Source of the DNA: Deinococcales bacterium
GTDB lineage: Bacteria; Deinococcota; Deinococci; Deinococcales; JAAFIG01
NCBI GenBank assembly: GCA_025359505.1
Contig: JANYHH010000005.1
Span: 14,376 to 78,375, forward strand
DNA: 64,000 nt
Direction of reading: 5' to 3'
In this document: positions 1-64,000 of the stretch, piece after piece
Numbering within the stretch: position 1 is the first letter of the stretch
Layout of the letters: each line of letters starts with the position of its first letter
Notes under the pieces: model-generated
The model's input: the letters and a program-made list of their open reading frames with translations, nothing else
Database searches by the model: none
Told to the model about the DNA's origin: nothing
Translations under genes and position numbers: made by a program

Positions 1-524
1 GGGCGGCGGTGGTGCTGCCCGACAACGTGTTATTTGAGGGCGGGGCGGGCGAAACGATCCGGCGGCGCTTGTTACAGCAGTACGACCTGCACACGATTCT
101 GCGCTTGCCAACCGGCATTTTCTACGCGGGCGGCGTCAAAGCCAACGTGTTGTTTTTTGATCGCAAACCCGCGCAGGAGGGTTGGTGGACGCAGGGGACG
201 TGGGTCTATGACCTGCGTACCAATCAGAATTTCACGATGAAAACCAATCCCTTGCGGCTCTCGCACTTGGAGGAGTTCATTCGGTGCTACGCCACCGCTG
301 ACCGCAGCCAGCGCACGGAATCCGAGCGCTTCAAACGGTTCTCGCTCGAGGAGTTGCTGGCACGCGATAAGGTCAATTTGGACATCACGTGGCTGCAAGA
401 CAACGCCTTGGAGGACGCGGCTTCTCTGCCCGCGCCAAACGTGCTGGCGCTCGAGATCACCGAGCAGTTGCGGTTTGCATTGGAGCAGTTCGCGGCGATT
501 GGTGACGAGCTGAGCGAGGTTTGA
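1..524 (+). CDS. hsdM: Type I restriction-modification DNA methyltransferase subunit (HsdM-like), C-terminal part; the 5' end lies outside the window
   Basis: The ORF is open to the window edge. The translation VLPDNVLFEGGAGETIRRRLL..LHTILRLPTGIFYAGGVKANVLFFDRK resembles the conserved C-terminal core of N-6 adenine DNA methylases of type I systems. Confidence 0.8.
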   Translation, partial: AAVVLPDNVLFEGGAGETIRRRLLQQYDLHTILRLPTGIFYAGGVKANVLFFDRKPAQEGWWTQGTWVYDLRTNQNFTMKTNPLRLSHLEEFIRCYATADRSQRTESERFKRFSLEELLARDKVNLDITWLQDNALEDAASLPAPNVLALEITEQLRFALEQFAAIGDELSEV

Positions 525-539
525 GCAATCACGGTTTGT

Positions 540-953
540 TCACTGCTTGACGCCGTTGGCCCAGACTTCCCACAACTCCGCTTTCTGAATTGCATCGCCC
601 GGAATGCGAGCCGTGATGTACGTCACCGATGCCGCGTAGCACGGGTAAATCACGGACAGGCTAAACCAATCGCTCGAGCGCAAACCCTTGACCGTACTGC
701 CCAGCGCCGTGGCAATCGATTTGATCTGCGCGAGTTGACCCGGCCAGTCTTTGCCGTATGTGCCGCAACCTTGAGCGACGTAACTCAAACCATAGCCTGA
801 GATGTACGTGACGCTAAAATTCAGTCCCGTCGCGGCTTGAATCGCGGCCATCATCGGCTTGGCGGTGTTCATCGCTGTGGGAATGTCAAACGGCACGGTC
901 TGCGCGTGGACGACGGTCAGCAGAGTCAGCAACAAAATGGCGAGGCGTTTCAC
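540..953 (-). CDS. Secreted hypothetical protein (N-terminal signal peptide)
   Basis: 137-aa ORF. The N-terminus MKRLAILLLTLLTVVHAQ looks like a signal peptide with an AxA-type cleavage site. No recognisable family. Confidence 0.55.
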   Translation of the reverse strand: MKRLAILLLTLLTVVHAQTVPFDIPTAMNTAKPMMAAIQAATGLNFSVTYISGYGLSYVAQGCGTYGKDWPGQLAQIKSIATALGSTVKGLRSSDWFSLSVIYPCYAASVTYITARIPGDAIQKAELWEVWANGVKQ

Positions 954-1128
954 CCCTTGAGCTTATCGCCCTGAGCGGAAGATCAATGCCCGATACGAAC
1001 ATGGTTTTACTCGAGGATCTGCTCAGGCCCGAGTCACGCGGTTGTGATACCCAACAGAACCCGGATTTAAATTGATATTGCAAAGTGAGTGACAGGCAGC
1101 ACGGTGATTGTCTGTGAAGATAACGCAG

Positions 1129-1827
1129 ATGCCCGCCTACCCGCTGCCGCCAATCTCGAGTTTCGCGGCGAACGCACTGAAACTCCTCGCGCTCGCGCTG
1201 ATGCTCAGCGATCACATCCACTACGTCTTCTTCAACCGCCAGCTCGAGTGGCTCTACTGGCTCTCGAGGCTCGTGTTCCCACTGTTCGCCCTGATCGCCG
1301 CGCAGAATTTGCAGCATCATCGCGCCAATCCGCAACGCTACATCTCGAGGTTACTGCTGTACGGCGTGATCGCGCAACCGTTCTACAACTGGAGTTTTGG
1401 GTTCGCGCAACTCAACGTGCTGTTCACGCTCGCCGTCAGCGTTGGCGCATGGTGGTGGCTCGAGACTGCCCGCGCTCGAGGCGTGGACATCGTTTCGCGC
1501 TACGCTCCCGTGCTGCTCGTAGCGATCAGCGCGGTGCTGCTCGAGTTCAACTGGGCAGGCGTGCTGGCTGTGCCGGTCTACGCGGCACTGATGCGGCGCG
1601 TCGCGTGGTGGGATTGGCTGGCGGCGTTCGCCTTGAGCTTCGGGATCGTGCGCTTCACCGAACCGTGGATCATGCCGATGATCGCGCTTGCGTTGTGGCT
1701 GCTCGCCTCGAGATTTTCAACCAGTTTGAGTCAGACACGGAAACCGCAGCGCTGGGTGCAACAAGCTGCGTATGCGTTCTACCCCTTGCATCTGGCAATT
1801 ATCGCGCTCGTTGCTGCACTGACTTGA
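1129..1827 (+). CDS. TraX-family membrane protein (F-pilin acetylase family)
   Basis: Polytopic hydrophobic ORF with LKLLALALMLSDHI near the N-terminus and a C-terminal AYAFYPLHLAIIA, typical of the TraX family. I chose the first ATG (1129); the ORF track starts at a TTG at 1108. Confidence 0.65.
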   Translation: MPAYPLPPISSFAANALKLLALALMLSDHIHYVFFNRQLEWLYWLSRLVFPLFALIAAQNLQHHRANPQRYISRLLLYGVIAQPFYNWSFGFAQLNVLFTLAVSVGAWWWLETARARGVDIVSRYAPVLLVAISAVLLEFNWAGVLAVPVYAALMRRVAWWDWLAAFALSFGIVRFTEPWIMPMIALALWLLASRFSTSLSQTRKPQRWVQQAAYAFYPLHLAIIALVAALT

Positions 1828-1876
1828 CGCATTTGAACTTCGGGCGCATCATGTTTTTTGCACGCGGAGGTCGCCG

Positions 1877-2209
1877 ATGCAAAAGCACCCAGCGAATGAG
1901 CTGAACGAAGACCTGAGCGCGGATCGCTTGTATGGCGAACGCAGTTGGAACCCGCTTGGGCAGGAGCCAATCGCGGCGCATGACCTCGAGCGGCGCGGGC
2001 AGATGTTGCCGCTCGAGTTGCCGTGGCTTCGTGATCGGGGTGGACATACGAGCAGCGCTTCGAGCCTGCGTGGGGCGATGGGTGGGTTCTGGTGGACAGC
2101 ACTTGGGATTGCTTTCGGTGCAATCGTCGGTATGCGACTCGCGGGAGTCGTTGGGCTGATGGTCGGCGGCTTTTTCGGCGCATGGCTCACCGCACGCATC
2201 ACCCGTTAA
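1877..2209 (+). CDS. Small membrane protein, hypothetical
   Basis: GGAGG lies 6 nt upstream of the ATG. The C-terminal half (FWWTALGIAFGAIVGMRLAGVVGLMVGGFFGAWL) is predicted to be two TM helices. Confidence 0.5.
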   Translation: MQKHPANELNEDLSADRLYGERSWNPLGQEPIAAHDLERRGQMLPLELPWLRDRGGHTSSASSLRGAMGGFWWTALGIAFGAIVGMRLAGVVGLMVGGFFGAWLTARITR

Positions 2210-2212
2210 AAG

Positions 2213-2584
2213 TCAACGAAGCAATACTGGCGTGATTTTCCACTCGGGCGGCACGGTCACGCCACGCTCGCCGAGCATGACCTCGAGTCCACGCGCTCGA
2301 GCCAAGGCCACCGTAAAGGCAACCTCGAGTTTGACACTGGATTGCACAAGCCGCGCCGCATCCACAGCGCAGCCGGAGTCGATGGGCGCGATCTCGAGAT
2401 TGAGGCGGGCGAGGTCTTCGGCCACAGTGCGCGGCGATGGTCCGATAAGCGCGACCAGCAGAGCAGTAAAGCTGACTGCACTGATGCACCCCGGCAGCTC
2501 GAGTGCTCGAGCGACGCGATCCGCACCGTGTTCACCGCGCAGAAAAATCAGCAGTGCCGCCGAGTCAAACACCACGAGACTCAC
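2213..2584 (-). CDS. vapC: PIN-domain toxin (VapC-like)
   Basis: The N-terminus VVFDSAALLIFLRGE is typical of PIN/VapC. It overlaps the upstream AbrB-type antitoxin gene by 20 nt. Confidence 0.65.
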   Translation of the reverse strand: MSLVVFDSAALLIFLRGEHGADRVARALELPGCISAVSFTALLVALIGPSPRTVAEDLARLNLEIAPIDSGCAVDAARLVQSSVKLEVAFTVALARARGLEVMLGERGVTVPPEWKITPVLLR

Positions 2585-2816
2585 CGCCCTCGAGTGCTAA
2601 GGGTTTGGCTGGAAAGGCGGGTGTCGGATTGGGTGCGGCATACTTTCCAAGCAGGTTGACAATCACGGTTTTGCGCCGCTCGAGAATTAACCTTGCACCG
2701 TCGAGTTGCACGGTCACCACATCGCCAGCCTCGAGCTTGAGGGCTTCGCGCAGAGCATTGGGAATCACGAATTGACCCTTCGCGCCGAGTTTCGCCAGTT
2801 GCATTTTCGCGTTCAT
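2565..2816 (-). CDS. vapB: AbrB/MazE/SpoVT-family antitoxin (VapB-like)
   Basis: AKLGAKGQFVIPNALREALKLEAGDVVTVQLDG is a SpoVT/AbrB swapped-hairpin motif. It sits directly upstream of the PIN gene and overlaps it. Confidence 0.7.
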   Translation of the reverse strand: MNAKMQLAKLGAKGQFVIPNALREALKLEAGDVVTVQLDGARLILERRKTVIVNLLGKYAAPNPTPAFPAKPLALEGGESRGV

Positions 2817-3096
2817 CGCTCACCTCGAGCCGATCATGCCGACCGACTGGGTTGGAAGTGGTGCGTTGGCGTTGCTGGAAAATCACTCGAGTTCACGTCC
2901 AGCGCAAAAGCGCCAACATCCCCAACCGAGTCCGAACCCCGCTAAAATGCCGCATTCGAGCGGAGTATCGTTCTTCACGACGTTACGCTACTGTTCACAA
3001 CAGGTTTCAAGCGAGTGAAAACTCGAGCGAAAATCACTTTCCTGCCCACCAGCGGAGTTTTCAGCGTACTGACGTGTAACACGCCTTACAACTAAG

Positions 3097-3498
3097 TTGG
3101 GCGGCGGAAAACCAGTGCCACTCGAACAGCGATGCACCTCGGTCGGCGATCAGGCTCGAGGGGTGAATCACCGTTTAATTGAACTGTCCTTGTTGCTGAT
3201 TTGCCCGTTTGATGAAGCTCGGGCGTGGGTGCGTGCTCTCGAGCATTTGGAACCGGTAACGCGGGATGCACGGGGCGCTCGCACGGTCACCACGGCTCAA
3301 CTCGAGCGCATCGCGGTCGCGCGGCTGGTCGCGGCGAACCGTCACATCTCGAGGGTTCAAGCGCTGAAATTCGTGGCGCAACTCGGGGCAGCGCACGATG
3401 CCCTCACGTGGCTGAACTCGAGCCGTGCCATCCTCGGATTAACCGCGCTTGAGGCTCGCGTCGCGTTGCTCGAAGCGAAATCGGAAGGACAGCGATGA
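3097..3498 (+). CDS. Hypothetical protein, first gene of the long island operon
   Basis: 133-aa ORF with an uncertain start (TTG at 3097). Its stop overlaps the next start as ATGA at 3495-3498. Confidence 0.4.
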   Translation: MGGGKPVPLEQRCTSVGDQARGVNHRLIELSLLLICPFDEARAWVRALEHLEPVTRDARGARTVTTAQLERIAVARLVAANRHISRVQALKFVAQLGAAHDALTWLNSSRAILGLTALEARVALLEAKSEGQR

Positions 3499-3908
3499 CT
3501 GAGTTTCTCGTGCAAATCGAGGGGCAATCGCGCTATGTTCGCGTGATCGCATACACGGTACTCGAGGTCGTGGCGATACTCGGGATTGACGCAAAATTCA
3601 CCGTGTTCTCGAGTCTCGGCGCAGCGTATCGGCTCGAGGGGGATCAAGCGCCGTACTCCATTCCAGCGCGGTTGCCGCTCATTGTCCGGCTCGCATGGTG
3701 GGGCGCACGGCATCCTCGGGTGCGTCTGGCGTTTCAAATCGTGTGTTGGCTGGGTCTCGCGGTTTCCTTCGTGCAGATGGTTACTCGAGTGCCGGGATGG
3801 CCGATGTCGCTGCTGATCGCGGGACTCGCCAATACCCTCGCGTGGTGGTGGTTCGAGTCTGAGCGCGGGCGCATTGACCCTGAAGTGCTCGTCGCCCGAG
3901 ACCCCTGA
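3495..3908 (+). CDS. Hypothetical membrane protein
   Basis: ATGA coupling to the upstream ORF. Trp-rich hydrophobic segments (LAFQIVCWLGLAVSFV, MSLLIAGLANTLAWWWF). Confidence 0.5.
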   Translation: MTEFLVQIEGQSRYVRVIAYTVLEVVAILGIDAKFTVFSSLGAAYRLEGDQAPYSIPARLPLIVRLAWWGARHPRVRLAFQIVCWLGLAVSFVQMVTRVPGWPMSLLIAGLANTLAWWWFESERGRIDPEVLVARDP

Positions 3909-3997
3909 GCGCACTCGTCGCTACGAAAGTCAAGGCACACATCAGCCTTGACTTTCTGCGCTCCTCGCACGACGCGGCATCGTGAAAGGAGTCAACG

Positions 3998-4171
3998 ATG
4001 TCTGATGAACGTTCAATCCGCCCGCCCGTGCCGACCGAAGAGGTGGAGGTTTCAGACCCGCCCATCCCAACGCCAGAGGCTCACCCGCAACAGCGCCGTC
4101 GAGTTCGCAGCCGCCAAGTCTCGAGACGAACCGTCAAACGCCTCATCGTCCTCACCCTGAAGCGGCGGTGA
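3998..4171 (+). CDS. Small Pro- and Arg-rich hypothetical protein (57 aa, below the ORF-track cutoff)
   Basis: AAAGGAG lies 7 nt upstream of the ATG at 3998. My translation is MSDERSIRPPVPTEEVEVSDPPIPTPEAHPQQRRRVRSRQVSRRTVKRLIVLTLKRR. Its stop overlaps the GTG start of the next ORF (GTGA at 4168-4171). Confidence 0.4.
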   Translation: MSDERSIRPPVPTEEVEVSDPPIPTPEAHPQQRRRVRSRQVSRRTVKRLIVLTLKRR

Positions 4172-4812
4172 GTAGCGTGTTGTGGATTCAAGCACTCGAG
4201 TCCCAACCACCGTCGGAGGTCACGCATCTCGAGATAGAAATGGATCAATCCTTGTTCGCGTGCCTGCATTTGGCGCGAGCGTGGTTTGCCGCAAGTCCAG
4301 AACCGCGTCTCGAGAAGCAAAGTTTTCGCGCTGAGCTGACGCTGCTCGATCAAATCGGAGGCATGGGTGTGGCGAGTGGGTTTCGCAGCGAGCGCCCGCC
4401 GAACCTCGAGCCGTCGTTCGAGGTCGTGCGCGAAGCCTACCTGCACGTATCCCGCGAATCCGCTTGGTTCGAGGTTCGCACGATGCGCGGTGCAGTGTTC
4501 GACACGCGAGCCACACCGTTTGAGCCGTCGCCGACACTTGAACAATCAGACGCAGCGATCAGCAGCGAGGAGCGGGTCACGCAGGTGACACTCGCGCTCG
4601 AGATCAGGATTCTGCACGAAGGCGAATTTGGGGAGGCGGCGCTCGAGGAGTTGCTGCACAACCTCGACTTCGCCCTCGAGCAGCAGCGCGGTTCCGCCAG
4701 TCTCGCGCCCGAAAGCGTGGATGGCGTGACCGAAAATTTCTTGTTTCATTTGCTCGATGTGCGTTCGGCGTTTGCCGCACCACCGGCAGCACCGCAGGAG
4801 GTGATCGCATGA
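4168..4812 (+). CDS. Hypothetical acidic protein
   Basis: 214-aa ORF coupled at both ends (GTGA upstream, ATGA downstream at 4809-4812). No recognisable domain. Confidence 0.5.
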   Translation: MSSVLWIQALESQPPSEVTHLEIEMDQSLFACLHLARAWFAASPEPRLEKQSFRAELTLLDQIGGMGVASGFRSERPPNLEPSFEVVREAYLHVSRESAWFEVRTMRGAVFDTRATPFEPSPTLEQSDAAISSEERVTQVTLALEIRILHEGEFGEAALEELLHNLDFALEQQRGSASLAPESVDGVTENFLFHLLDVRSAFAAPPAAPQEVIA

Positions 4813-7800
4813 CGGCGATACGAAAACCAGAAGCCGCTCCTTTCGAGGGGGCGGTTTCATTCGGCGCGAATGCGCTCGAGCGGCACGGGGCAAGGGGACG
4901 TGAGACGGCAAATGCAGATGCCTGCCAACTTGCCCAGCGGCTCGAGACCGAGGGACGCGATCCGACCAGCGATGAACGCCAAGTATTACTGGCATACAGC
5001 GGCGTTGGTGGCACGACCTCGAGCGGGTCAGATCACGCAGACGGCAACACGCTCGGATTGCTAAACGAGTATTACACCCCAATCAAAGTGGCTCGAGCGG
5101 TTTGGCGTTTGCTGGAACGCCTCGGGTTTGCGGGCGGTCAGGCGCTCGAGCCAGCGGCAGGGACGGGCATCTTCCTCGAGACCGCGCCGGAGGCTGTGCG
5201 TTTCACAGCGGTCGAACTCAATCCCGATGCGGCCCGCATCAACCGACTGTTACATCCGCGTGCCGAGGTTCGCAGCTCGAGCTTTGAAGCGGACTGCCAT
5301 CACAGCGACGAACTCGAGTTTGAATTGGTGATCGGCAATCCGCCGTTCGGGCCGCGCGGTTTGAACGCGCTCGAGGGCAAGCCGCAGTGGAAGAGCTACG
5401 CGCCGTACTTCGTGGACGCGGCGCTGGATCGCTTGCGCGACGGTGGCTTACTGGCGTTCGTGCTGCCGAGCGGGTTGGTGACTTCAAATCAGCACCTTGC
5501 GTTTCGCGCCCACCTGCTGGCTCGAGCCAGATTGCGGGCCCTCGTGCGCCTGCCGGTTAGCACTTTCGCAGCGTCGGGCGCTCGAGCCGCCACGGACGTG
5601 ATTGTCCTTGAGAAGCGCCCGTGGGTGGTTGGCGACACGCTCGCCGAGTTGATCGGGCGCTTCGGGCCGCGGGCGCTAGCGAGTGCTGCTGTGCTTGACG
5701 CGGCGGCTCGAGATTTTTTGCAGGGTCAGTTTTACGACTCGAGACCGGGTTACGTGCTGGGCGAAATGGTGCGAGACGCCCGCTGGGGTGGGCTGATTTG
5801 CGATGGGGTTTTAGATGCACCAACCCTCGAGCGGCTGGCGAACGCGCCGCTGCTCGAGTCGCCCGTCGGCGCAAGTTCACTGGGTCGGTTGCTGAAGCTG
5901 CTCGAGTCGAGCGGCGCGTTCACAGTGCTGGCGCGAGCGAAGAACACCGATGTTCGTGGGGCGCTCGAGAGCGCTTGGGCATCCGCACGGTCAACGGGTT
6001 ACCCACACCGCGAGGGTCTCGAGCGTGCCGACGGGTACGTGTTCAAATTCGTCAAGGACGGTAGTCGCTGGACTCGAGGCTGGCAGCAGGCGCACACGGC
6101 ACTTCATCCCGCCGTCGCAAGTGCGCTCGAAGTCGCGGGGAAACTGCGGGCGTTTCACGAGGCTCGAGGATCGCGGGGGGATGACCCCGAGGCTCTGCGC
6201 GTCGCGGCGCTCGAGGCGCTGCAAATGCACATCGCCGCGCATGGCAACCCGCACGCGAGTTTGCTGCTGACGGCCGCCGCTCGAGTCAAACCCGCGTTGT
6301 ACCGTTTGCTCGGGGCGCTGCGTGCTGATGGACAAATCGCCCCAGTCCTGCTCGAGCCGCACAGCCCACAGCTCGAGCGCAGCCCAGACTTTGAAACCGT
6401 CTGCGGACAGCTCGACCGCGCCCGGCAGCTCACGCTCGCAACCCTGCTCGAGCATTGGGAAGGCGGCACGAGGTTAGCAGCTCGAGCGGCGCTGATTGAA
6501 TCCGACGCTTGGATGGTCACGCCAGACGGCCGTTTTACAGCGAGCCAAGGCTACGCGGTGGGAAATGTTCTCGAGAAAGCCGCGCTGTCGCGGGCGCAGG
6601 CGGAGAACGAACCAGATTTCGAGTTGCATCAGAAATTGCTGCGTCAAGCGGAACAACTCGAGGCGTTAAAACCCTGCCGCACGCTCGAGGAGATCGGTTT
6701 GACGGGGACGGAGGGTTGGATTCCTGCCGCCATTTTGCAGGCTTGGCTCGAAGAGGCGTACCCGTTTCTCGAATACCTGCGCGATGAAACCAATGGGCGC
6801 GTGACGATCACGCTTGACCCAGAGCGTCTGCGCGAAGCGAGGGTTACGCGGGGGCAGGCTGATGACGACGCAAAGAGGCTTTCGCGCTTCTTCAATTTGG
6901 AACACACCGCCAAAATGGTGACCGATGCTCAGCAACTCTCGAGCGAGCAGTACGCGGCCGCCCGCAAAGCCCGCATTGAGCAAGCCCAGCAGGGCGAGCG
7001 GGCGCTGAGCCTGAAATTTCTGCACTTCGTCGCGGGCGACCTCGAGTTACGGGGGCTGCTCGAGGAGCGTTACAATGCGCTGTTCAATGGCTTCTTCGCG
7101 GGTGAGGACGACACCCGACCGCTGGCACTAGCGGGCTGGGCAGAGCCGACCCTGCACAGCTATCAAAACCACGGCGTGCGTTTTGCCGAGGGTCGTGCCA
7201 ACGGCTTAATTGCCTTTGATACAGGCTTGGGCAAAACCCTTGTCGGTACGGCGATCACCGAGTCATGGCTCGAGTCGGGTCGAGCGAGCCGCACGATGAT
7301 CGTCGTCCCAAAAGGGCTGCTGGTCAACTGGGCCCGCACATTGGATCGCGCCATCCCGTTTCGCCGGGTCGTCACGGTCGGGATCAGCGCTCGAGCCGAT
7401 GGCACTCAATTAGAGGATGAGGTCGCCGTTGTCCTCGAGAAATTGCACGAGTTCGCGCTCGGCGCGTATGACGTGGCGCTCGTGTCCCGCGAGTGGTTCC
7501 GGCGCTTGCGACTGCGCCCCGATACCCTGCGCGAAATGATTGCTCGAGAAGCGGCACTGCTGGCGGTCGACGACGTGGAAATCGAAGACGAGGACGACCA
7601 ACCGACCGCTCGAGCGCAGACGCTGACCCTCGCGGAGCGCCAATCGCTGCTGGCTTTGCGGGTTGCACAGGGCAATGCGTTGCCGCAGATTCATTTCGAG
7701 GATTTGGGCATTGATGCGTTGATCGTGGATGAGGCGGGTAGCCTGAAGAACCTCTACACCGCGCCGACGTATTTTGGGAAGAAACCCAAGTTCATGGGCG

Positions 7801-9446: not shown

Positions 9447-9540
9447 ATCGCTTGCTCGCTCGGGATTGTCCAGACACAAATCAGTCTGGACAATCCCTCC
9501 CTCACGCGCTGACTTGAGGACAGCGAAAGGAGGTGAAGCG

Positions 9541-9897
9541 ATGCAAATAAGCGCACCAAACCGCCGTCCGCTCGAGCCAGCGATCCTCGAGCGATTCCGC
9601 GCACAGGGTATTAAAGTGGCGCAATTCGCCTATTTCGAGAACCACGACGAGTGGCAACTCGAGGACATCCGCGTCGCGTATCAGAACGGCGCAGTCATCG
9701 AAGAGCCGTACAGCGACGCGCTCGAGCCTGATCTTTGCGCGTTGCTCGAGGAAGTCGGTTTCGATGGCGGCTATGTGCTCATCGAAGTTGACGTGGGGAC
9801 AGCCACGCAACTCGACCAAGCCTTCTTGCTCGAGCTGCGTTGGTGGCAGCTCGACGAGGCGACGCAACGGGCACTCGAGGACGCTGGAGCGGTGTAA
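9541..9897 (+). CDS. Hypothetical protein
   Basis: AAAGGAGGTG lies 5 nt upstream of the ATG at 9541. The ORF-track start at 9427 has no RBS. Confidence 0.55.
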   Translation: MQISAPNRRPLEPAILERFRAQGIKVAQFAYFENHDEWQLEDIRVAYQNGAVIEEPYSDALEPDLCALLEEVGFDGGYVLIEVDVGTATQLDQAFLLELRWWQLDEATQRALEDAGAV

Positions 9898-9932
9898 ATC
9901 GCCCGCTGGGACGGTGAAAGGAGGTCAAGCCA

Positions 9933-12604: not shown

Positions 12605-12612
12605 AAACCACC

Positions 12613-12643: not shown

Positions 12644-12659
12644 AGCCTGACGCGGGAAC

Positions 12660-49854: not shown

Positions 49855-49880
49855 CCAGCGACAAGTTATCTCGAGCGGGT

Positions 49881-53507: not shown

Positions 53508-53512
53508 CCCAA

Positions 53513-53917: not shown

Positions 53918-54031
53918 GCCAGCATTGTAGGGGTTTACTCTTCTGCAAACCCCGTGCGACACTCGAGGTACACGGAGCATCTCGAGCAGGTCACGGTCAT
54001 GCGAGGCGCTCAGGGCGTAGATTCAAGGAAT

Positions 54032-56608: not shown

Positions 56609-56671
56609 ACCGCTCGAGGTGGAGGTAGCGTGCCTGATCGGGGATCGATTCTCTGTGGTGATTCTCATGGA

Positions 56672-57355
56672 TCACGGCTTCTTTTTAACCTCGAGAATCG
56701 GTTTAACAGCTTGAGGGGACTCGAGCCTGCCCTGTCTGCGCGGTGTGATGACGCCGTTCTCAATCGCCTTGGGTTGACGCTCGGTTGCCCGCAGCCCCGC
56801 GATCAGCGCCGCCATGCTCCGCGCCCACGGCACGCGCAGGTTGATACGCTTGTACTGCCAGTGATGCAGCACCAGCAGGTCGCCCGCGCCCAGATCGCTC
56901 AGTTCGACAAAGCGCCAGCGCAGCCCCTCGAGACGCGTGGCTTCGCTCGTCCCGCCCCGGGTCGCGTTGATGATCCCCTGCGGTTTCTTCGGGCCGCCCG
57001 CGCCGAGCATCAGTCGCACGAAGCGCTGCGTCACCAGCAGCGCCGCTGCACCGGCCGTACTGAACTCGCCGCTTGTCGACACGTCGTAGTAAACGACCCC
57101 GAGCGCGTGGGCGCACCAGTCCTCCTGCCACTCGAGCCGCCACGCTTGGCCGTAGACCGTCGGCGGTGGCGCGTCGTGGAACAAAGCGAAACCGTGCCGC
57201 TCCGGGAACGGCGCTTGACCCAGAAAATACGCCGTGATCTCCCCCGCGAGCTGTTCGTCAGCCGAACGCTGGGCACTGGACGCGGCGGGCAATTGCCTGA
57301 GGTGCATACGCGCCTTCAGTCTGGCATATCTCGAGGCGGCTCGAGCAGCGACCAC
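56672..57355 (-). CDS. Hypothetical protein
   Basis: 227-aa ORF with coding-like composition. No family recognised, and the start is uncertain (alternative at 57307). Confidence 0.45.
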   Translation of the reverse strand: MVAARAASRYARLKARMHLRQLPAASSAQRSADEQLAGEITAYFLGQAPFPERHGFALFHDAPPPTVYGQAWRLEWQEDWCAHALGVVYYDVSTSGEFSTAGAAALLVTQRFVRLMLGAGGPKKPQGIINATRGGTSEATRLEGLRWRFVELSDLGAGDLLVLHHWQYKRINLRVPWARSMAALIAGLRATERQPKAIENGVITPRRQGRLESPQAVKPILEVKKKP

Positions 57356-57405
57356 GTTTCCTTGATCCGCAGCGGATCACTGAAGGCGCGGTATGCTGGT
57401 CTGAT

Positions 57406-58590
57406 TTGAATACCTTAGCCCATCACCCGGACTGGACGCTGCCCGATTACGCGGGCGGCAGCATCCTCAACCTCGCCGCCAGCTTCGCAGATCACTTCGG
57501 GGTGAAAACATCACACCCGTTGTTGCGAAACGCGTTGCCGCTGGGGGGTGTGGAAACGGTCGTGTTGCTGATCGTCGATGGTCTGGGACAGTGGCAGTTA
57601 GACAAGCACATCAGCGACGGCGATGCGCCGAACCTCGATCACTTGATGCAAGACCACTCGCAGGTCATCACCAGCGTTTTCCCCAGCACCACCATGGCGG
57701 CCATCACCAGCATCCACACCGCTACCCCGCCCGCACAGAGCGGTTGGCTCGGGTACACGATGTGGCTCGAGGAAACCCAGACGCTGACCGAGATGATCGG
57801 CCAAGTGGACATGGCTTCTAAAAAGCCACTCGCGGATAAAAGCTTTTTATCAGCCGTGCCGAACATCTACTCGAGCTACGCGGCCACCGGCGTCAATGTC
57901 TACGCGGTGCAACCGCAAGGCTACCGTGGGTCGTGGCTCAACGAGTGGTACTGGCGCGGTGCGGCGCAGCTTGGCTACGTCAGCGCCAACACCTTGGGCA
58001 GCATCGCTTTGCCCGCGCTCGAGGTCAGTGGCAAGAAACTCGTCGTCTTATACTGGGCTGATTACGACAGCGTGTGTCACAAGCACGGCCCCTCGAGCGC
58101 GGCCGCTTCTGACGAGATCGCGGCTGTGGATCACGCGGTTGGGCGCTTGCTGGGGCGCTTACCCGGCGACGGCAAGACGGCGCTGGTCATCACGGCCGAT
58201 CATGGGCAGATTGACCTAGAGCCTGAAAAAACCGTTTATCTCGAGCGCGACCTGTGGCTTGTGGAGCGCCTGCTCAGCCCACCAGCGGGGGATCGGCTCT
58301 GCCGCACGTTTCGCGTGCAAACCAATCAACTCCAAACGGTGCGCGATCACCTGCGGCGTTACGGTGACGTGCTGGACGGCAGCGCCGCGTGGGAAGCGGG
58401 CTTATTTGGTGGAGCGCCAGCCTTTGAAACGTTTCGCTCGAGGGTCGGGGATCTGATTGTTCTGCCGCACACGGGGTCTCAGCTTTGCTGGACGTTCAGC
58501 GGTAAACAACCCTCAAAGCCGCACCGAGGTTCGCACGGTGGATTGTCGCACGCTCAGATGCGCGTACCGCTGCTGAGCAAGCGCGTATAA
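57406..58590 (+). CDS. Alkaline-phosphatase-superfamily protein (type I phosphodiesterase / nucleotide pyrophosphatase-like)
   Basis: LLIVDGLG...FPSTTMAAITSIHT...ITADHGQ...HGGLS. The ORF-track start is a TTG codon. Confidence 0.7.
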   Translation: MNTLAHHPDWTLPDYAGGSILNLAASFADHFGVKTSHPLLRNALPLGGVETVVLLIVDGLGQWQLDKHISDGDAPNLDHLMQDHSQVITSVFPSTTMAAITSIHTATPPAQSGWLGYTMWLEETQTLTEMIGQVDMASKKPLADKSFLSAVPNIYSSYAATGVNVYAVQPQGYRGSWLNEWYWRGAAQLGYVSANTLGSIALPALEVSGKKLVVLYWADYDSVCHKHGPSSAAASDEIAAVDHAVGRLLGRLPGDGKTALVITADHGQIDLEPEKTVYLERDLWLVERLLSPPAGDRLCRTFRVQTNQLQTVRDHLRRYGDVLDGSAAWEAGLFGGAPAFETFRSRVGDLIVLPHTGSQLCWTFSGKQPSKPHRGSHGGLSHAQMRVPLLSKRV

Positions 58591-58650
58591 TCTCAAGTCA
58601 GACGTGCGTACCGTTCTCTACACTATTCAACAACGCGGTGATCTCGAGCG

Positions 58651-59208
58651 ATGACCGACTCGGGCGCTCCGTCATTCAAGCGCTTTGAGGTCGAACTGCG
58701 CCCCGTGACCCAGATGTCGGTCGCGGACTGGCAGCGCTTTCATCGGTACTTCAAAGACCGCGAGATCGCCAAACTGAACGGTGCAAGCCCAATTTTCCTA
58801 CCGCTTTGGCTGTTCAAACGTATCGTGCTGGGCGAGGAAAAAAGCGGCGAGCGGATTGGTTACGCGATTTACGTCGCGCAGAGTTTCGTTGGCAGCGTCG
58901 AATTTTACGATCTCAACGAGCGGACGCGTCAAGCGGTGCTGGGGATTTTGATTGGCGAGAAAGCCCTGTGGGGCAAAGGCTACGGCACGGTCGCGGTGCG
59001 TTTAGCGCTCGAGCTGATATTTCAGATCCACAAATTTGAGCGCATTCACTTGCAAACCTTGGATCACAACGCCCGCGCAAGGAAAAGTTTCGAGCGGGTT
59101 GGGTTTCACCTGACTGGCTTGGCTGACGCGGGCAAGCAGCGCTTCGCGCATTACCAAATCACGAAGATAGAATGGTTAGCGCTAAACAATAGCCAATCGC
59201 AACCTTAA
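58651..59208 (+). CDS. GNAT-family N-acetyltransferase
   Basis: LGILIGEKALWGKGYGTVAVRLALE...N.RARKSFERVGF (acetyl-CoA binding motif A region). Confidence 0.75.
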   Translation: MTDSGAPSFKRFEVELRPVTQMSVADWQRFHRYFKDREIAKLNGASPIFLPLWLFKRIVLGEEKSGERIGYAIYVAQSFVGSVEFYDLNERTRQAVLGILIGEKALWGKGYGTVAVRLALELIFQIHKFERIHLQTLDHNARARKSFERVGFHLTGLADAGKQRFAHYQITKIEWLALNNSQSQP

Positions 59209-59545
59209 AACCAGTTCCTCGAGACCAAAAAACACCTATTGGTCACGCACAGCTCGAGCACCTTCATCGACTCGAGCTGCACCCGAAAAAGGCGATGGTA
59301 AAGGCGTTTAATTGACTTTTGAGTGATCGCGGTGATCCTCGAGATGTCGATTTTCACGCGCTGCGGCGCTCAACTAGCTTGCGCGTTTAAAAATTGTGCT
59401 ACGCTTTTTTCAGTGCCTGTCCAATTGGTGAATGCCAAACGCAGTTCTTGCCGTGTGAATCCAGTGGCGATGTCAGCCCCGGGGACGCCCCAAGAACAGC
59501 GGGATGGGTATGTGTGGAGTTCCGCCGGAAAGGGGGTGTCACCAC

Positions 59546-59890
59546 ATGGCAAAAGAAACCGCTAAGAAAGCTGCTCCAGCCGCGAAAGCCGCTGCGAAGC
59601 CAGCCGCCAAACCAGCCGCGAAAGCCGCTGCCAAGCCCGCTGCGAAAGCGGCAGTCAAGCCAGCCGCGAAAGCCGCTGTCAAGCCAGCCGCGAAACCAGC
59701 CGCAAAAGCCGCTGCCAAGCCAGCCGCGAAGAAAGCCGCTGCCAAACCAGCCGCGAAGCCTGCTGCGAAAGCTGCTGCCAAGCCAGCCGCAAAAGCCGCA
59801 GTCAAGCCTGCTGCGAAGAAAGTGGCCGCAAAACCAGCCGCGAAAGCCGCTGCCAAGCCAGCCGCCAAGAAAGCTCCAGCCAAGAAGTAA
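59546..59890 (+). CDS. Lys/Ala/Pro-rich histone H1-like repetitive protein
   Basis: MAKETAKKAAPAAKAAAKPAAKPAAKAAAKPAAK... with a GGAAAGGGGG RBS region, followed by a strong terminator. Confidence 0.7.
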   Translation: MAKETAKKAAPAAKAAAKPAAKPAAKAAAKPAAKAAVKPAAKAAVKPAAKPAAKAAAKPAAKKAAAKPAAKPAAKAAAKPAAKAAVKPAAKKVAAKPAAKAAAKPAAKKAPAKK

Positions 59891-59901
59891 GCTTTGTTTT
59901 G

Positions 59902-59932
59902 AAAAACCCCCACAAACTTGTGGGGGTTTTTT
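59902..59932 (+). terminator. Rho-independent terminator
   Basis: AAAAACCCCCACAA-ac-TTGTGGGGGTTTTTT. Confidence 0.85.
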
Positions 59933-59953
59933 ACGGCGTCACAGCAAATTTCA

Positions 59954-59987
59954 CTTTGATTGAGAATTCTTAAATTCTCAATCAAAG
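59954..59987. repeat. AT-rich palindrome (15-bp arms, 4-nt loop)
   Basis: CTTTGATTGAGAATT-ctta-AATTCTCAATCAAAG. Confidence 0.8.
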
Positions 59988-60104
59988 GCGAGCGTCGTGC
60001 CCATGCACGCAAGGCGTGACGCGAGTAGAAACAAGACAGCGGTCGAATCGCAGTTGAGAAAAAAGCCCTCTTTTTTCTCAACGAAGATGAAAACCGCTGT
60101 CAGT

Positions 60105-63100
60105 TCAATTCACGCTGCGCTGACCCTGACTCGAGCCGCCACGCTGCTCCCACGGTTTCGGAGCGGGTGCGTATTTGGCCAGCACCTTGTCTCCATCGAT
60201 GCCCAGCCCGATCTTCAACCACGCGCAGGTGATTTTCAGACGTTCCAATGTCTCGAGTGTCGCCCGCTGCGCCAACTCCCAATCCTCGTAACCGTCGGCG
60301 CTGACCACGCGCACGCGAATCGGGATGTTCTGCACGCCTTCTTGCACCTGCAACAAATCATCCAACGTTGAAAACACATCGGGACTAACGACCGCCAAAT
60401 TAACCTCGAGCGCCAAGATTTTGGGTAAGTCCTTGGCATCCTCGTACAGCACGAGTTCCTCGACGGTCACGCGCACGCCTTCGTCACCGTCGGGTTCGAT
60501 CTCGACGATCACCAGAGCGGGCGAGTCTTCTTGGAGCTTTGGATTGATCTTGTCGTATGCGCGGCTGAATGCCACCAACTCCGCCGCGCCCACATCATCG
60601 GTTAAGACAAACCGCGCCATCATCCCGCCAGATTTGGTCGGCTTGCGCTGAATCCCCGAGATCATCCCGACCAGCACCGCCCGCTTGCGTCCCTTGTAGC
60701 CGACGGGTGCGCTTGACGTGCGAAACCAGCCCTCAATTTGCGGCACGCGGCACGACGCCGCCTCGAGCATCCCGGGGTAATGCTCCAACGGATGCCCGCT
60801 AATGTACAAGCCGACCGCCTCTTTTTCAAATTGCAGAGCCTGAATCGCCCGGGCCCTCGCCTCCTCCTCGTCACGCGGCGCAGGCAGCACGCGCAACTTC
60901 GGTTCGGGCGCGACGAGTGCCATGCCGAACAAACTGTCCATGCCCTGATTGGCCATGCTCGCCTGCCCCGCCGCGTACTCGAGCGCTTCTTCCGCTGACT
61001 CGAGCACCGCTTCCCTCGCGCCGAACGCGTCAAACGCGCCAGCCTTCACCAGATTCTCGAGTGACCGCCGATTCACGCCCGCGCCGTGCATCCTCGAGCA
61101 GAAATTCGCCAAGCTCTTAAAGTTCCCGCCGCGCTCGCGCTCCTCCAAGAGTTGCAGCACCGACTCCTCGCCCAAGCCTTTGACGGCAAACAACCCAAAC
61201 AAGATCTGATCGCCCTGCACCTTGAAATCTGGATTGGATCGGTTGATGTCCGGCGGCAGCACCTGAATCAGTGCGCCACTCTCGAGCCTCGTCTGGCGGG
61301 CGTCGTTGATGTACTCCGCGACTTTCTCAGAGTTACGGCGCTCTACGGTCAGTAATGCCGCCATAAACTCGACTGGATAGTGCGCTTTAATGTATGCTGT
61401 TTGAAAAGATATGAAAGCATAAGCTGCTGAATGTGATTTATTGAACCCATAATTGGCAAACTTCTCGAGAATACCGAACAAACGCTCAGATTCATCTTTC
61501 GGTATTTTGTTCGCTTCTTTAGCACCAGAGACAAACTTAATACGCTCTTTTTCCATCTCCTCCAATTTCTTTTTTCCCATTGCTCTCCGAAGTAAATCGG
61601 ATTGCCCCAGCGAATACCCCGCGACCGCACTGGCAATCTGCATGATCTGCTCTTGATAGACAGGAATTCCATACGTTTCCTCGAGAATCGGGCGCAGCAG
61701 CGGCTCGCAGGTCGGCAGGTTGAACTCACCCGCGTCGTACCGCACCGCCTCGCGCCCGTGATGACGCTCGATGTACGCGGGAATGTTCTCCATCGGGCCC
61801 GGTCGGTACAAGGCGGAGAGCGCGTTGATGTCTTCAATGCGGCGCGGTTTTAATTTCCGCGCCGCATCGGTAATCCCTCCACCCTCGAGTTGAAAAATCC
61901 CTTTGGTTTCGCCCCTCGAGACCACTTCATAGGCTTTCTCGTCGTCCAGCGGGAAATCGTCTGGCTCGAGGCTGATACCCTTAGAATCTTTGATGATCCG
62001 CACGGCTTCCTCCAAGAAAGACAATGTGCGAAGTCCGAGGAAATCCATTTTGATCAGCCCGATGTCCTCGACGCTGTTCATGTCGTACTGGCAGACCACG
62101 CCTTCGTCGCCGCCCGCTCGCATCAGCGGCACGAGGTTGTCTAAGCGCTCGCGCCCGATAATCACGCCCGAGGCGTGGACGCTCGAGTGCCGCGTCAGCC
62201 CTTCCAGATTCTGCGCGATCTCGAAGACTTTACGGGCGTTTTTACTTTCGTCGAGCATCTTTTGAATGTCAGGCACGGTCTCGCGGGCTTTCTCGAGCGA
62301 TAAGGCGCGACCGAAAACGACCGGCACGAGCTTACTGAGCTTATCGGCTTCCTGATACGGCAACTCGAGCACCCTCGCCACATCTTTAAAGCAGGCTCTC
62401 GAAGACATCGTTCCGTAAGTGGAGATCATCGCCACTTTGTCGTCACCGTACTTGTCGCGCACGTAGTTGATGACCTCGTTGCGGCGCGTGTCGCTAAAGT
62501 CCACGTCGAAATCCGGCATCGACACGCGGTCGGGGTTCAAGAAACGCTCGAACAATAAGCCGTAACGCAGCGGGTCGAGGTTTGTGATCCGCAGCGCATA
62601 GGCGACCAAGCTGCCCGCACCTGAGCCGCGCCCCGGCCCGACGCGAATCCCCTGACCCTTCGCCCAGTTGATGAAATCCGCGACGATCAAGAAGTAATCG
62701 GGAAAGCCCATGCGAATGATCACGCCACTCTCGTACTCGGCGCGGCGCAGCACCACCAAGCCCTGCCCCAGTCGCTCGCTCGAGTCAGCCTCGAGTTGAT
62801 CCAACGCGGGGTACGGCGTGTACTTCGCGGCTGTCTCGAGACCGAGTTCGACCCATTCAGAACCCAAGAATGCCAACAGCAGGTACATTTGCTCCAAGCT
62901 CGCCTCGAGCGGGCGCACCCCGGCGCGGCGCAGCACCTCGGCGCGGCGGTCTGGCTCGAGGTGTCCCAAGCTCACAGAGGCGTACTCGCGCAGCAGCGCC
63001 AGTGTGAACACATCGCTGTACCGCGCCTGCGTGCCTCGGTAGACCTGCACGCGTAGCTCCTCCGCCATGCTGCGCCCCTCGGGAATCGGCAAGGCGGGCA

Positions 63101-64000
63101 TCTGGTACTTGCGCTTGCTGCCGATGGGAAGCTCGAGGTTGCACATCTCCGCAATCGCAAAAGTGTTGTCGTACAGCTCATCGCCCCACTCACTGCTGGG
63201 CAGCATCGCCTCGAGTTCCGCCGCGCTTTTAACGTAAAAGTCATTGCACGGGAATTTGAAGCGGTCTTCTTCGGACATCAGCGCTTTGGTCTGAATCGCC
63301 AGCAGCACCTCGTGCGCGTAGGCATCGTCGGATTTGACGTAATGTCCGTCGTTGGTGGCGACCATGCCGATGCCGTACTTCTTCGCCCACGCTTTCAAGA
63401 CTGGATTGACTTTTTGCTGCTCGGGCAAACCGTGGTTCTGGATTTCAATGAAGTAATTCTCCCGAAACGTCTCCAAGTACCAGCGCAGCCGCTCCTCGGC
63501 ATCCTCGAGTCGGTCGTTGAGAATCATGTTCGGGACTTCCGCGCCGAGGCAACCGCTCATCGCGATGATGCCCTGACGGTGAATCGCCAGCACCTCGCGG
63601 TCGATGCGCGGCTTGACGTAGAACCCCTCGAGATACGCCAGCGACGCGAGTTTGCAGAGGTTTTGATAACCCTGAAAGTCCTTGGCTAAAAGCGTGAGGT
63701 GGTAGTAGCCGCCCTCCATGCCCTTGGAGTTGTTGCGGCTGATGCGATCCAACCTCGAGCCAGCCGAGACGTAAGCTTCGTAGCCGATGATCGGCTTGAC
63801 GCCGTACTCGGTGGCGTACTTGTAAAACTGCACCGCGCCGTGCATGTTGCCGTGATCGGTCATCGCTACCGCTGGGTTATCCGAAGAGGTCTTCGCCACC
63901 CATTTCAGCAAGTCTTTAATCCGCGCCGCGCCGTCCAGCAAGCTGTACTGCGTGTGCTGATGCAAATGCGCGAAGCGACGCGGGGGCGTTAAAACGGTCT
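60105..64000 (-). CDS. dnaE: DNA polymerase III alpha subunit; the reading frame is still open at the window edge, so the true start is probably just beyond 64000
   Basis: The PHP domain is HLHQHTQYSLLDGA, followed by ...GPGRGSGAGSLVAYAL.ITN.DP, FNKSHSAAYA and an OB fold. The frame continues upstream of the ORF-track start as ..TPPRRFAHLHQ. Confidence 0.95.
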   Translation of the reverse strand, partial: TVLTPPRRFAHLHQHTQYSLLDGAARIKDLLKWVAKTSSDNPAVAMTDHGNMHGAVQFYKYATEYGVKPIIGYEAYVSAGSRLDRISRNNSKGMEGGYYHLTLLAKDFQGYQNLCKLASLAYLEGFYVKPRIDREVLAIHRQGIIAMSGCLGAEVPNMILNDRLEDAEERLRWYLETFRENYFIEIQNHGLPEQQKVNPVLKAWAKKYGIGMVATNDGHYVKSDDAYAHEVLLAIQTKALMSEEDRFKFPCNDFYVKSAAELEAMLPSSEWGDELYDNTFAIAEMCNLELPIGSKRKYQMPALPIPEGRSMAEELRVQVYRGTQARYSDVFTLALLREYASVSLGHLEPDRRAEVLRRAGVRPLEASLEQMYLLLAFLGSEWVELGLETAAKYTPYPALDQLEADSSERLGQGLVVLRRAEYESGVIIRMGFPDYFLIVADFINWAKGQGIRVGPGRGSGAGSLVAYALRITNLDPLRYGLLFERFLNPDRVSMPDFDVDFSDTRRNEVINYVRDKYGDDKVAMISTYGTMSSRACFKDVARVLELPYQEADKLSKLVPVVFGRALSLEKARETVPDIQKMLDESKNARKVFEIAQNLEGLTRHSSVHASGVIIGRERLDNLVPLMRAGGDEGVVCQYDMNSVEDIGLIKMDFLGLRTLSFLEEAVRIIKDSKGISLEPDDFPLDDEKAYEVVSRGETKGIFQLEGGGITDAARKLKPRRIEDINALSALYRPGPMENIPAYIERHHGREAVRYDAGEFNLPTCEPLLRPILEETYGIPVYQEQIMQIASAVAGYSLGQSDLLRRAMGKKKLEEMEKERIKFVSGAKEANKIPKDESERLFGILEKFANYGFNKSHSAAYAFISFQTAYIKAHYPVEFMAALLTVERRNSEKVAEYINDARQTRLESGALIQVLPPDINRSNPDFKVQGDQILFGLFAVKGLGEESVLQLLEERERGGNFKSLANFCSRMHGAGVNRRSLENLVKAGAFDAFGAREAVLESAEEALEYAAGQASMANQGMDSLFGMALVAPEPKLRVLPAPRDEEEARARAIQALQFEKEAVGLYISGHPLEHYPGMLEAASCRVPQIEGWFRTSSAPVGYKGRKRAVLVGMISGIQRKPTKSGGMMARFVLTDDVGAAELVAFSRAYDKINPKLQEDSPALVIVEIEPDGDEGVRVTVEELVLYEDAKDLPKILALEVNLAVVSPDVFSTLDDLLQVQEGVQNIPIRVRVVSADGYEDWELAQRATLETLERLKITCAWLKIGLGIDGDKVLAKYAPAPKPWEQRGGSSQGQRSVN

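Follow-up and report, generated by a model that had tools for sequence, protein, structure and literature searches.

A HIP1-like hyperabundance of the palindrome CTCGAG in a clade of uncultured Deinococcota

A 64,000-bp stretch of DNA from a Deinococcales bacterium (contig JANYHH010000005.1 of assembly GCA_025359505.1, positions 14,376 to 78,375; hereafter, the window) is densely populated by the six-base palindrome CTCGAG, and the same word is the most over-represented hexamer in the DNA around dnaE of six close relatives. The excess extends to all codon phases and to non-coding DNA, is accompanied by changes in protein sequence, and looks like a second, independent case of highly iterated palindromes (HIPs), which are known so far only from cyanobacteria. 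With modest confidence, we read CTCGAG in this clade as a HIP of the HIP1 type, kept by a long-lasting fixation bias for the exact hexamer, for which a methyltransferase-linked recognition factor is our best guess at the driver.

The window contains 447 CTCGAG sites, or one per 143 bp (7.0 per kb, at a G+C content of 60.1%), where Markov models of order 0, 1, 2, and 3 predict 20.8, 27.7, 44.0, and 130.9 sites, respectively. With an order-0 observed-to-expected (O/E) ratio of 21.5, CTCGAG ranks first among hexamers both by count and by O/E, and it leads almost two-fold over the next commonest words, GCTCGA (243) and TCGAGC (207), which both overlap it. The signal belongs to the hexamer and not to its core: 447 of the 688 TCGA tetramers lie inside CTCGAG, and the remaining fifteen NTCGAN contexts are at background level. 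An initial annotation, made from the letters of the window alone, had described about 25 sites in the first 3 kb (at 345, 450, and 673, for example), a similar density elsewhere, and a more than tenfold excess that is unusual for a restriction-type palindrome. The full count bears this out. Exactly 25 sites, including the three named, fall in the first 3 kb; each 2-kb bin holds 7–25 sites and none is empty; and the observed number far surpasses the 21–44 sites expected under the order 0–2 models. As a background we used 160 unrelated dnaE loci, drawn from two public collections; in these, the order-0 O/E of CTCGAG has a median of 0.65–0.70 and a maximum of 8.6.

A maximal-order Markov model, the check that the initial annotation had proposed, predicts 393.8 sites, and the resulting ratio (O/E 1.14) is indeed near 1, although the deviation is large in units of its standard error (z = 11). 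The model is nearly blind here because it conditions on pentamers that are mostly made of CTCGAG (about 86% of the 521 CTCGA and 520 TCGAG occurrences come from the hexamer itself) and thereby absorbs the signal. The near-1 ratio is a property of the model and no evidence against enrichment.

To separate DNA-level from protein-level causes, we shuffled synonymous codons 300 times in a crude set of 44 genes over 53.7 kb of the window, while keeping the proteins and the overall codon usage. The null is conservative, as the proteins and the codon usage are both already inflated by CTCGAG. By this gene set, 359 sites are genic (6.7 per kb) and 88 lie in non-coding or unassigned DNA (8.5 per kb). 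The genic sites are distributed over the three phases as 237 CTC|GAG, 54 xCT|CGA|Gxx, and 68 xxC|TCG|AGx, against shuffled expectations of 60.3, 1.8, and 6.6 (total 68.7 ± 7.6, maximum 97). Phases 1 and 2, in which no Leu-Glu pair is encoded, thus exceed the shuffles 30-fold and 10-fold. Genes on the two strands have comparable densities (6.9 and 6.0 per kb), so that the described presence in all three phases, on both coding strands, and in intergenic DNA holds. Phase assignment from the periodicity of G+C content is too weak at 60% G+C (344 of the 447 sites stay unclear) and served as a rough guide for high-G+C loci only.

The effect is visible in the proteins. Leu-Glu is the most over-represented dipeptide of the window (340 occurrences, O/E 2.46), whereas the reverse pair Glu-Leu is at 0.98. 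The Leu-Glu part of the predicted dipeptide bias therefore stands; the effects foreseen for Ser-Ser and for pairs with Arg are small, with a modest O/E of 1.39 for Ser-Ser and no enrichment of Ser-Arg (1.07). CTCGAG spells 237 of the 340 Leu-Glu pairs (70%) and CTGGAG only 5, though CTG is the commonest Leu codon. One third of all CGA codons and one quarter of all TCG codons reside within CTCGAG. These counts show that the excess is DNA-level and frame-independent and that it overrides codon preference; it is neither confined to the Leu-Glu phase nor explained by codon bias alone.

Close relatives were found by a DnaE protein search, and the DNA around dnaE was then taken from their contigs, so that the clade sample consists of the roughly 64-kb window and seven segments of 12–25 kb around dnaE. 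Among the matches listed in our scans of genome and metagenome contigs, DnaE relatives reach at most 63% and 58% identity, respectively, and the nearest named relatives of the window are Deinococcota. The protein search retrieved closer ones from assemblies of ENA, JGI, and NCBI origin, whose DnaE is 96% (L081), 90% (L082), 81% (L083), 78% (L084), 73% (L085), and 70% (L086) identical to that of the window. In all six loci, which range from 45 to 62% in G+C content, CTCGAG is the top hexamer (3.7–8.0 sites per kb, O/E 11–34). By the gene calls of the source collection, all three phases and intergenic DNA are enriched in L083–L086, and intergenic densities in the relatives amount to 5–10 per kb. 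Specifically, in L084 (45% G+C) the phases hold 63, 28, and 16 sites against 4.7, 2.6, and 0.6 expected, and CTCGAG spells 63 of 112 Leu-Glu pairs despite a preference for the codons TTA and GAA. The trait, common to seven lineages with at least 70% identical DnaE and not found in Deinococcus, is clade-wide and independent of G+C content.

Two explanations can be weighed on these data. The first holds that CTCGAG is a by-product of Leu-Glu-rich proteins combined with a CTC-GAG codon-pair preference. It fits the 66% of genic sites that fall in the Leu-Glu phase, and it is the whole story in some other genomes: a codon-pair effect confined to Leu-Glu occurs in the cultured Deinobacterium chartae, in other Deinococcota-like contigs, and in several high-G+C genomes (O/E 3–8). 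D. chartae (L087; O/E 9.9) was considered as a member of the clade and rejected, since its genic sites are distributed 49/0/0 by phase and its intergenic density is 0.6 per kb; by DnaE it groups with Deinococcus. For the window clade, the 30- and 10-fold excesses in phases 1 and 2, the non-coding DNA that is as dense as coding DNA, the excess at 45% G+C against the local preference for TTA and GAA, and the unenriched Glu-Leu all contradict a codon-usage origin, which is refuted by the shuffles and the phase counts of the relatives and to which we give hardly any credence. The second explanation, an artefact of assembly, cloning, or engineering, comes to mind because CTCGAG is a common cloning site. 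The initial annotation had raised it as well, and it is likewise refuted: the six independently assembled relatives share the excess, making seven independent assemblies with the window, and their orthologous sites diverge in step with sequence divergence. We regard its chance of being correct as negligible.

The history of individual sites was followed in a codon alignment of dnaE. Where four outgroups have Met-Glu or Met-Gln, Val-Glu, Ile-Asp or Val-Asp, Arg-Glu, or Thr-Glu, the clade has Leu-Glu, and His-Ser-Ser in the clade replaces outgroup His-Ala-Ser. The outgroup majority is also Leu-Glu at 47% of phase-0 sites and has other residues at 53%. Several sites have thus been created by residue replacement, as the suggested comparison of orthologous codons was meant to reveal; the force is strong enough to fix amino-acid replacements, and the proposal that a DNA-level pressure shapes the proteins is borne out both here and by the Leu-Glu excess.

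Once gained, sites persist. Between the window and L081, L082, and L083, the fractions of CTCGAG sites kept in place are 0.75, 0.63, and 0.70, compared with 0.50, 0.28, and 0.32 for hexamers of the same composition. This excess of positional conservation fades against L085, the farthest relative in this comparison, and is no longer seen with Deinobacterium (L087) as the outgroup. At positions with an unchanged amino acid, 71% of CTC codons inside the motif and 33% of those outside it are retained, and the corresponding figures for GAG are 78% and 57%; codon retention inside versus outside the motif is 29/33 versus 27/69 against L083 (Fisher P = 2e-6) and 22/32 versus 13/61 against L084 (Fisher P = 1e-5). 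Among the sites that changed between the window and L081, 13 of 16 differ by at least two bases, against an expected share of about one third, and this fits an all-or-none landscape with short-lived intermediates one base away from the motif. As a separate observation, dnaE is interrupted by an intein (Intein_splicing and LAGLIDADG domains) in L082 (10001–15205) and in L003 (10001–15037) and not in the window; the intein of L082 contains 7 CTCGAG sites.

The unit of enrichment is the bare hexamer, as initially described. Its flanks are weakly biased in the window and near background (G at position −1 in 46% and C at +1 in 40%), their preferences shift with G+C content across the relatives and differ in the AT-rich ones, and the ±1 bases are non-complementary at 361 of the 447 sites. 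This deficit of complementary flanks may reflect mixed gene orientations, and we do not interpret it. We found no palindromic extension at the window sites, and neither a conserved extension nor a hairpin-forming unit of the kind that characterizes dispersed repeats such as repetitive extragenic palindromic sequences (REP) and miniature inverted-repeat transposable elements (MITEs).

One-mismatch neighbours of CTCGAG, pooled over eight loci comprising the window and L081–L087, show no depletion, a point that the initial annotation had proposed to check. The test is uninformative, because an advantage limited to the exact word predicts no depletion at equilibrium. Within the pool, TTCGAG/CTCGAA stands out with an O/E of 2.56 and is enriched in all eight loci, CTTGAG/CTCAAG is at 1.24, CTGGAG/CTCCAG is low at 0.73, and the CTAG-containing neighbours are at 0.19; the tetranucleotide CTAG is scarce in many genomes. 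The excess of TTCGAG/CTCGAA could, speculatively, reflect a hypermutable and possibly methylated outer cytosine. The palindrome TTCGAA is itself rare (2 in the window, about 9 expected).

These neighbour frequencies bear on the cause that had been listed first by the initial annotation, a repair or mutational bias akin to very-short-patch (VSP) repair, in which a cytosine methylase and a Vsr-like nuclease convert T:G mismatches in near-cognate sites towards CTCGAG. Dcm and Vsr raise the frequency of CCWGG in Escherichia coli. TTCGAG/CTCGAA is the sole neighbour class that deviates in all eight loci, which hints at chemistry of the outer C, and a gene with a DUF559/Vsr-like fold adjoins a methyltransferase in L085, a weak pointer. 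However, the T-containing neighbours are enriched (2.56 and 1.24), which is the reverse of the Vsr signature and weakens this candidate. Much of the gain, moreover, depends on transversions or on multiple substitutions (CTCGAG alternates with CTGGAG, TTGGAG, and ATGGAA), CTGGAG is nearly absent among Leu-Glu codings, and the 20-fold effect exceeds that of Dcm/Vsr by an order of magnitude. Scans of the window with Pfam and other collections revealed no vsr gene next to a 5-methylcytosine methylase. We therefore consider site-autonomous repair very unlikely, the more so as it predicts no interference between neighbouring sites.

Such interference is observed. Beyond 24 bp, spacing is near Poisson (coefficient of variation 0.92; variance-to-mean ratio 0.9–1.2), and a peak of pair distances at 24 bp stems from the tandem repeat at 30534–30599. 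At 6–17 bp, only 42 pairs of sites are seen in the eight pooled loci where 90 are expected. Of 39 cases with two Leu-Glu pairs at a distance of 2–5 codons, 7 (18%) have CTCGAG in both pairs, compared with 44% at 10–40 codons (Fisher P = 0.0012); typically exactly one of the close pairs carries the motif. The short-range deficit is not protein-level, because close Leu-Glu pairs are present but rarely both CTCGAG. The force thus saturates locally, with no advantage for a further site closer than about 18 bp. Saturation of this kind is predicted by a footprint or by a benefit that acts regionally, but not by site-autonomous mutation; the interference speaks for a site that is recognized by a protein.

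The recognizing protein might be an abundant, non-enzymatic DNA-binding protein, or CTCGAG might be a mark of self-DNA read by a defence or repair nuclease, so that site-poor DNA would be at a disadvantage. A palindrome suits a dimer, the exclusion zone of about 18 bp resembles a footprint, and the mobile island of the window, described below, is denser than the core genes, as it should be if mobile elements have to pass for self. Yet we found no candidate protein, nucleoid proteins rarely read an exact hexamer, and we know of no defence system that works in this way for a hexamer. This alternative, which overlaps with the explanation we prefer and is inseparable from it on sequence alone, appears improbable to us.

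Mobile DNA that resides in these cells carries the motif too. The first third of the window is an integrated island that resembles an integrative and conjugative element (ICE) and abuts a tRNA gene; no copy of the 3′ end of this tRNA gene was found elsewhere within the window, which places the distal end of the island beyond position 1. The early description of island and core genes (such as dnaE and copA) as both subject to the enrichment was correct, with 8.25 and 6.30 sites per kb. A homologous helicase region on a Deinococcus proteolyticus plasmid has no CTCGAG in 20.6 kb. Three genes of the window are poor in sites (15935–16489, 38381–39007, and 49143–49739) and are probably recent arrivals that have yet to accumulate them. 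The initial annotation had noticed few or no sites in the tRNA and in patches of low G+C content; this is accurate for the tRNA gene and for the first two genes, whereas the third, which is free of sites, has an ordinary G+C content. Taken together, the site-rich resident island and the site-poor genes imply that sites accumulate with residence time on any DNA in these cells.

The same distribution would be expected of an uptake or recombination signal with molecular drive, under which the competence or recombination machinery prefers CTCGAG-bearing DNA and site-richer alleles spread by transformation, a model put forward for the uptake sequences USS and DUS and later also for HIP1. Probable recent acquisitions are site-poor and the resident island is site-rich; a clade-wide, all-frame trait with a cost to the proteome matches the hallmarks of uptake sequences; and one CTCGAG is located within a terminator-like palindrome. 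Deinococcus and Thermus are naturally transformable. In cyanobacteria, according to a 2024 preprint, HIP1 raises transformation efficiency in Synechococcus 7002. Known uptake sequences, however, are asymmetric 9–12-mers that occur about once per kb, whereas CTCGAG is a 6-bp palindrome, which discriminates little, and occurs 7 times per kb; its spacing beyond 24 bp is Poisson and no more even than random. On balance, we find an uptake signal unlikely.

Outside the clade, CTCGAG behaves differently. The four Deinococcus segments (L208, L002, L003, and L211) together contain 3 sites in about 81 kb, where about 27 are expected: the D. proteolyticus plasmid has 0 in 20.6 kb, two chromosomal loci of 24–25 kb have 2 and 0, and D. 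radiodurans MP1 has 1 in 12 kb. The tetramer TCGA is overall not avoided in them, and the pattern is the signature of CTCGAG-specific restriction pressure in a neighbouring lineage. On plasmid pTT27 of Thermus thermophilus HB8 (L209, positions 1–50000), TCGA itself is depleted (49 versus 138 expected) and the fifteen non-CTCGAG contexts together amount to 4 against about 121 expected, whereas CTCGAG is in excess (45 versus 17 expected), nearly all of it in the Leu-Glu phase. Locus L215 repeats this pattern, with 6 of 7 TCGA tetramers inside CTCGAG. These word counts would be explained most simply by a CTCGAG-specific protection, apart from the TCGA restriction-modification system. In a Deinococcus-like metagenome-assembled genome (L001, 11513–13562), dnaE holds 9 sites and its 20-kb flanks only 2, and 4 of the 9 are shared with Deinobacterium; a codon-pair effect and past recombination are both possibilities.

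A scan for three clustered CTCGAG sites retrieved IMG/VR viral contigs with 64–70% G+C (L146, L206, L182, L188, L205, and L128/L198), in which CTCGAG is the top hexamer at 4–7 sites per kb. They were tried as phages of the clade and rejected, as none is homologous to the clade, the capsid gene of L128/L198 is actinophage-like, and L182 has no matches. CTCGAG-rich genomes may therefore exist elsewhere, possibly among Actinobacteria with an orphan CTCGAG methylase.

The foregoing results establish a directional force that is DNA-level, specific for the exact motif, and independent of frame and G+C content, that acts on resident mobile DNA, and that preserves site positions. Enrichment in unconstrained DNA is about 26-fold, which translates into a scaled advantage S of roughly 3. 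Under our preferred reading, CTCGAG as a HIP kept by fixation bias, every tolerant position would be pushed towards CTCGAG throughout the clade. A dimeric protein would sit on the site and read the palindrome; the most probable candidates are a CTCGAG-specific DNA methyltransferase passed on by vertical inheritance (either an orphan or once a component of a restriction-modification system) and an enzyme that recognizes the mark set by it. Sites might be retained by weak selection for dense marking, in the service of strand marking during repair or replication, of recombination, or of self-recognition, or else by repair or recombination that is biased towards the marked allele.

We favour a methyltransferase-linked driver because the phylum evidently harbours such a specificity, as the avoidance in Deinococcus and the exemption in Thermus indicate; because Nocardia has a conserved orphan CTCGAG methyltransferase, the target of which occurs in clusters at the origin of replication (Blow et al. 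2016, PMC4752239); because CTCGAG methylation is common to hosts and phages in hot-spring metagenomes, in a report that does not state the phylum (bioRxiv 10.64898/2026.06.24.734251); and because the precedent of HIP1 ties palindromes to orphan methylases (PMC4390886). As a specific step, we judge it nearly as probable as its absence, though slightly short of that. The fuller proposal, that an independently evolved HIP-like system employs a conserved CTCGAG-reading factor to mark essentially all resident DNA, chromosomal and mobile, with some 7 sites per kb and a footprint near 18 bp, as a dense signal for self-recognition, repair, or recombination, is put forward tentatively and with clearly less confidence.

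Several points weigh against the reading of CTCGAG as a methyltransferase-linked HIP. Neither in the window nor in about 140 kb of DNA from the relatives did a search of Pfam, NCBIfam, and PDB, run with the window genes and with the methylases that adjoin dnaE in the relatives, identify a methyltransferase of inferable CTCGAG specificity, an endonuclease of the XhoI family, a Vsr, or a MutH-like gene, so that the enzymes for which the initial annotation had suggested looking (an XhoI-like or orphan methyltransferase, or a Vsr-like endonuclease) did not turn up in the window and the dnaE flanks. L081 and L082 do have methylases beside dnaE, but these differ between close relatives and are therefore not the conserved factor. 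The clade is sampled by the window and seven segments around dnaE, static sequence cannot tell selection from biased repair or conversion, and the patterns in Thermus and Deinococcus are circumstantial, as they come from other lineages. Finally, the short-range exclusion could have another cause, such as instability of close direct repeats.

In close relatives, the variable slot just upstream of dnaE holds differing putative restriction-modification modules: a Dam-family methylase with a DUF7687/DUF7690 protein in L081 (388–2425) and a helix-turn-helix controller, an N6_N4 methylase, and a 218-aa open reading frame (ORF) in L082 (7707–9435). The nearest solved methylase domains of the methylase-SNF2 fusion in the island of the window are type I HsdM, with M.TaqI matching weakly.

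Among known systems, the closest parallel is HIP1 (GCGATCGC) with the alternative palindromes of cyanobacteria, the function of which is unresolved and for which a link to a conserved methyltransferase is suspected (Elhai 2015, PMC4390886; Xu et al. 2018, PMC5861425). As with HIP1, a short GC-rich palindrome outranks every other word of the genome in over-representation, by tens of fold, is found in each reading frame as well as between genes, and is inherited within a clade, and some lineages use a different palindrome; sites and codons are more conserved inside the motif, as in the test of Xu et al. (PMC5861425). CTCGAG in the clade is not HIP1 proper, which is GCGATCGC in a cyanobacterial genome: the host belongs to Deinococcota, the word has 6 bp instead of 8 bp and lacks an internal GATC or CGATCG, it is about 2.5 times denser (one per 143 bp, compared with one per 350 nt for the densest HIP1 reported), and a short-range exclusion between sites is documented for it here. 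In the broad sense, it falls in the HIP class, with an excess of 21.5-fold in the window and of 11–34-fold in the six relatives (the class being set at 15-fold or more), presence in all frames and in non-coding DNA, conservation, and sharing across the clade. According to Xu et al. (PMC5861425), no HIPs have been observed outside cyanobacteria, and our full-text searches of the literature turned up neither CTCGAG hyperabundance nor HIPs outside cyanobacteria, Deinococcota included.

Other systems share fewer features. The uptake signal sequences (USS) of Pasteurellaceae and DNA uptake sequences (DUS) of Neisseriaceae resemble CTCGAG in their family-level excess, their occurrence in every frame, with consequences for the proteins, their scarcity in acquired DNA, and their occasional location in terminator hairpins, but they differ in the length, asymmetry, and density discussed above and in having a demonstrated uptake specificity. 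Dcm/Vsr provides an example of a repair bias, tied to a methylase, by which a methylation site becomes commoner (CCWGG up and CTWGG down in E. coli); its effect is small, its T-neighbour is depleted, and it involves transitions only, whereas here the T-neighbours are enriched and the gains include transversions and multi-base changes. The Nocardia methylase recognizes the same word and demonstrates the existence of a CTCGAG methylase that is conserved vertically and has a cellular role other than restriction, but its motif is clustered at oriC and not reported to be hyperabundant genome-wide, and Nocardia belongs to another phylum. Restriction-site avoidance concerns the same class of words with the opposite sign in the window clade, and it takes its classic form in Deinococcus (for CTCGAG) and in Thermus (for TCGA).

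The features of the window are collected in Table 1. An exact look-up of the copA product gave no match, probably owing to a different start codon. The sites that the initial annotation had placed inside a tandem repeat and a hairpin are both as described there. Two adjoining genes of RDD-family membrane proteins span 29086–31838, and the second of them holds the repeat of three 24-bp units. The hairpin, formed by the perfect palindrome CACTGCTCGAGCAGTG with its T-run, looks like a terminator by its sequence, and it is the only terminator-like hairpin of the window that contains CTCGAG. An ORF at 59394–59963 (+) without a Pfam match has a tail of Ala-Lys-Pro repeats (AAKPAAKAAAKP...), similar to histone H1 or AlgP; it matches in position one of the longest stretches devoid of CTCGAG (59338–60130), and the length of the repeat varies in L081 and L082.

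Table 1. Coordinates of CTCGAG-related and other features of the 64,000-bp window.
Feature	Coordinates	Strand	Location or remark	Evidence
CTCGAG field	1..64000	.	447 sites	Counts and Markov models
Example CTCGAG sites	345..350, 450–455, 673–678	.		Position list
Integrated ICE-like mobile island	1..22679	.	187 sites, 8.25/kb	Pfam and density
N6-methylase ORF	9–524		Island; truncated at window edge	
TraX	1108–1827		Island	Pfam
N6-methylase/Eco57I-type domain fused to SNF2 helicase, 1545 aa	4809..9446	+	48 sites (10.3/kb)	
ParB-like protein, 797 aa	10211–12604		Island	
DUF932 protein	14382–15179		Island	
Low-GC (51%) gene	15935–16489	-	1 site	
Tyrosine integrase	21321–22586		Island	
tRNA-Gln(ttg)	22680..22753	-	Island attachment point; zero CTCGAG	
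Core chromosomal genes (glnA, hrpB, cdaA, ndk, copA, U32 peptidase, dnaE, others)	22754..64000	.	260 sites, 6.30/kb	Pfam
Three 24-bp tandem units	30534..30599	+	One CTCGAG each; in RDD-family gene 30216–31838	Sequence
Low-GC (49%) gene	38381–39007		1 site	
16-bp perfect palindrome followed by T-run	40330..40345	.	CTCGAG central; 3′ of gene 39075–40121	
copA (P-type ATPase)	45820..48363	-	15 sites, 5.9/kb	Pfam
Ordinary-GC (58%) gene	49143–49739		0 sites	
dnaE	60105..63965	-	27 sites; used for cross-species codon alignment	Pfam, alignment

HIP1 has gone unexplained for about 30 years, and the CTCGAG clade gives an independent system, set against sister lineages that differ sharply from it. Its different word, higher density, and range of 45–62% in G+C content permit comparative tests of methylase, repair-bias, and recombination or uptake drivers. 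The clade also provides a case in which a six-base DNA signal measurably distorts codon usage and protein sequence, and CTCGAG density, as a sharp signature, can serve to bin members of the clade, to spot genes acquired recently, and to link mobile elements and phages with these hosts. If our reading of CTCGAG as an independent HIP is true, hyper-dense palindromic marking of genomes would be a convergent strategy and not a cyanobacterial oddity, and the avoidance in Deinococcus together with the exemption in Thermus would trace the domestication of a restriction-type specificity within one phylum.

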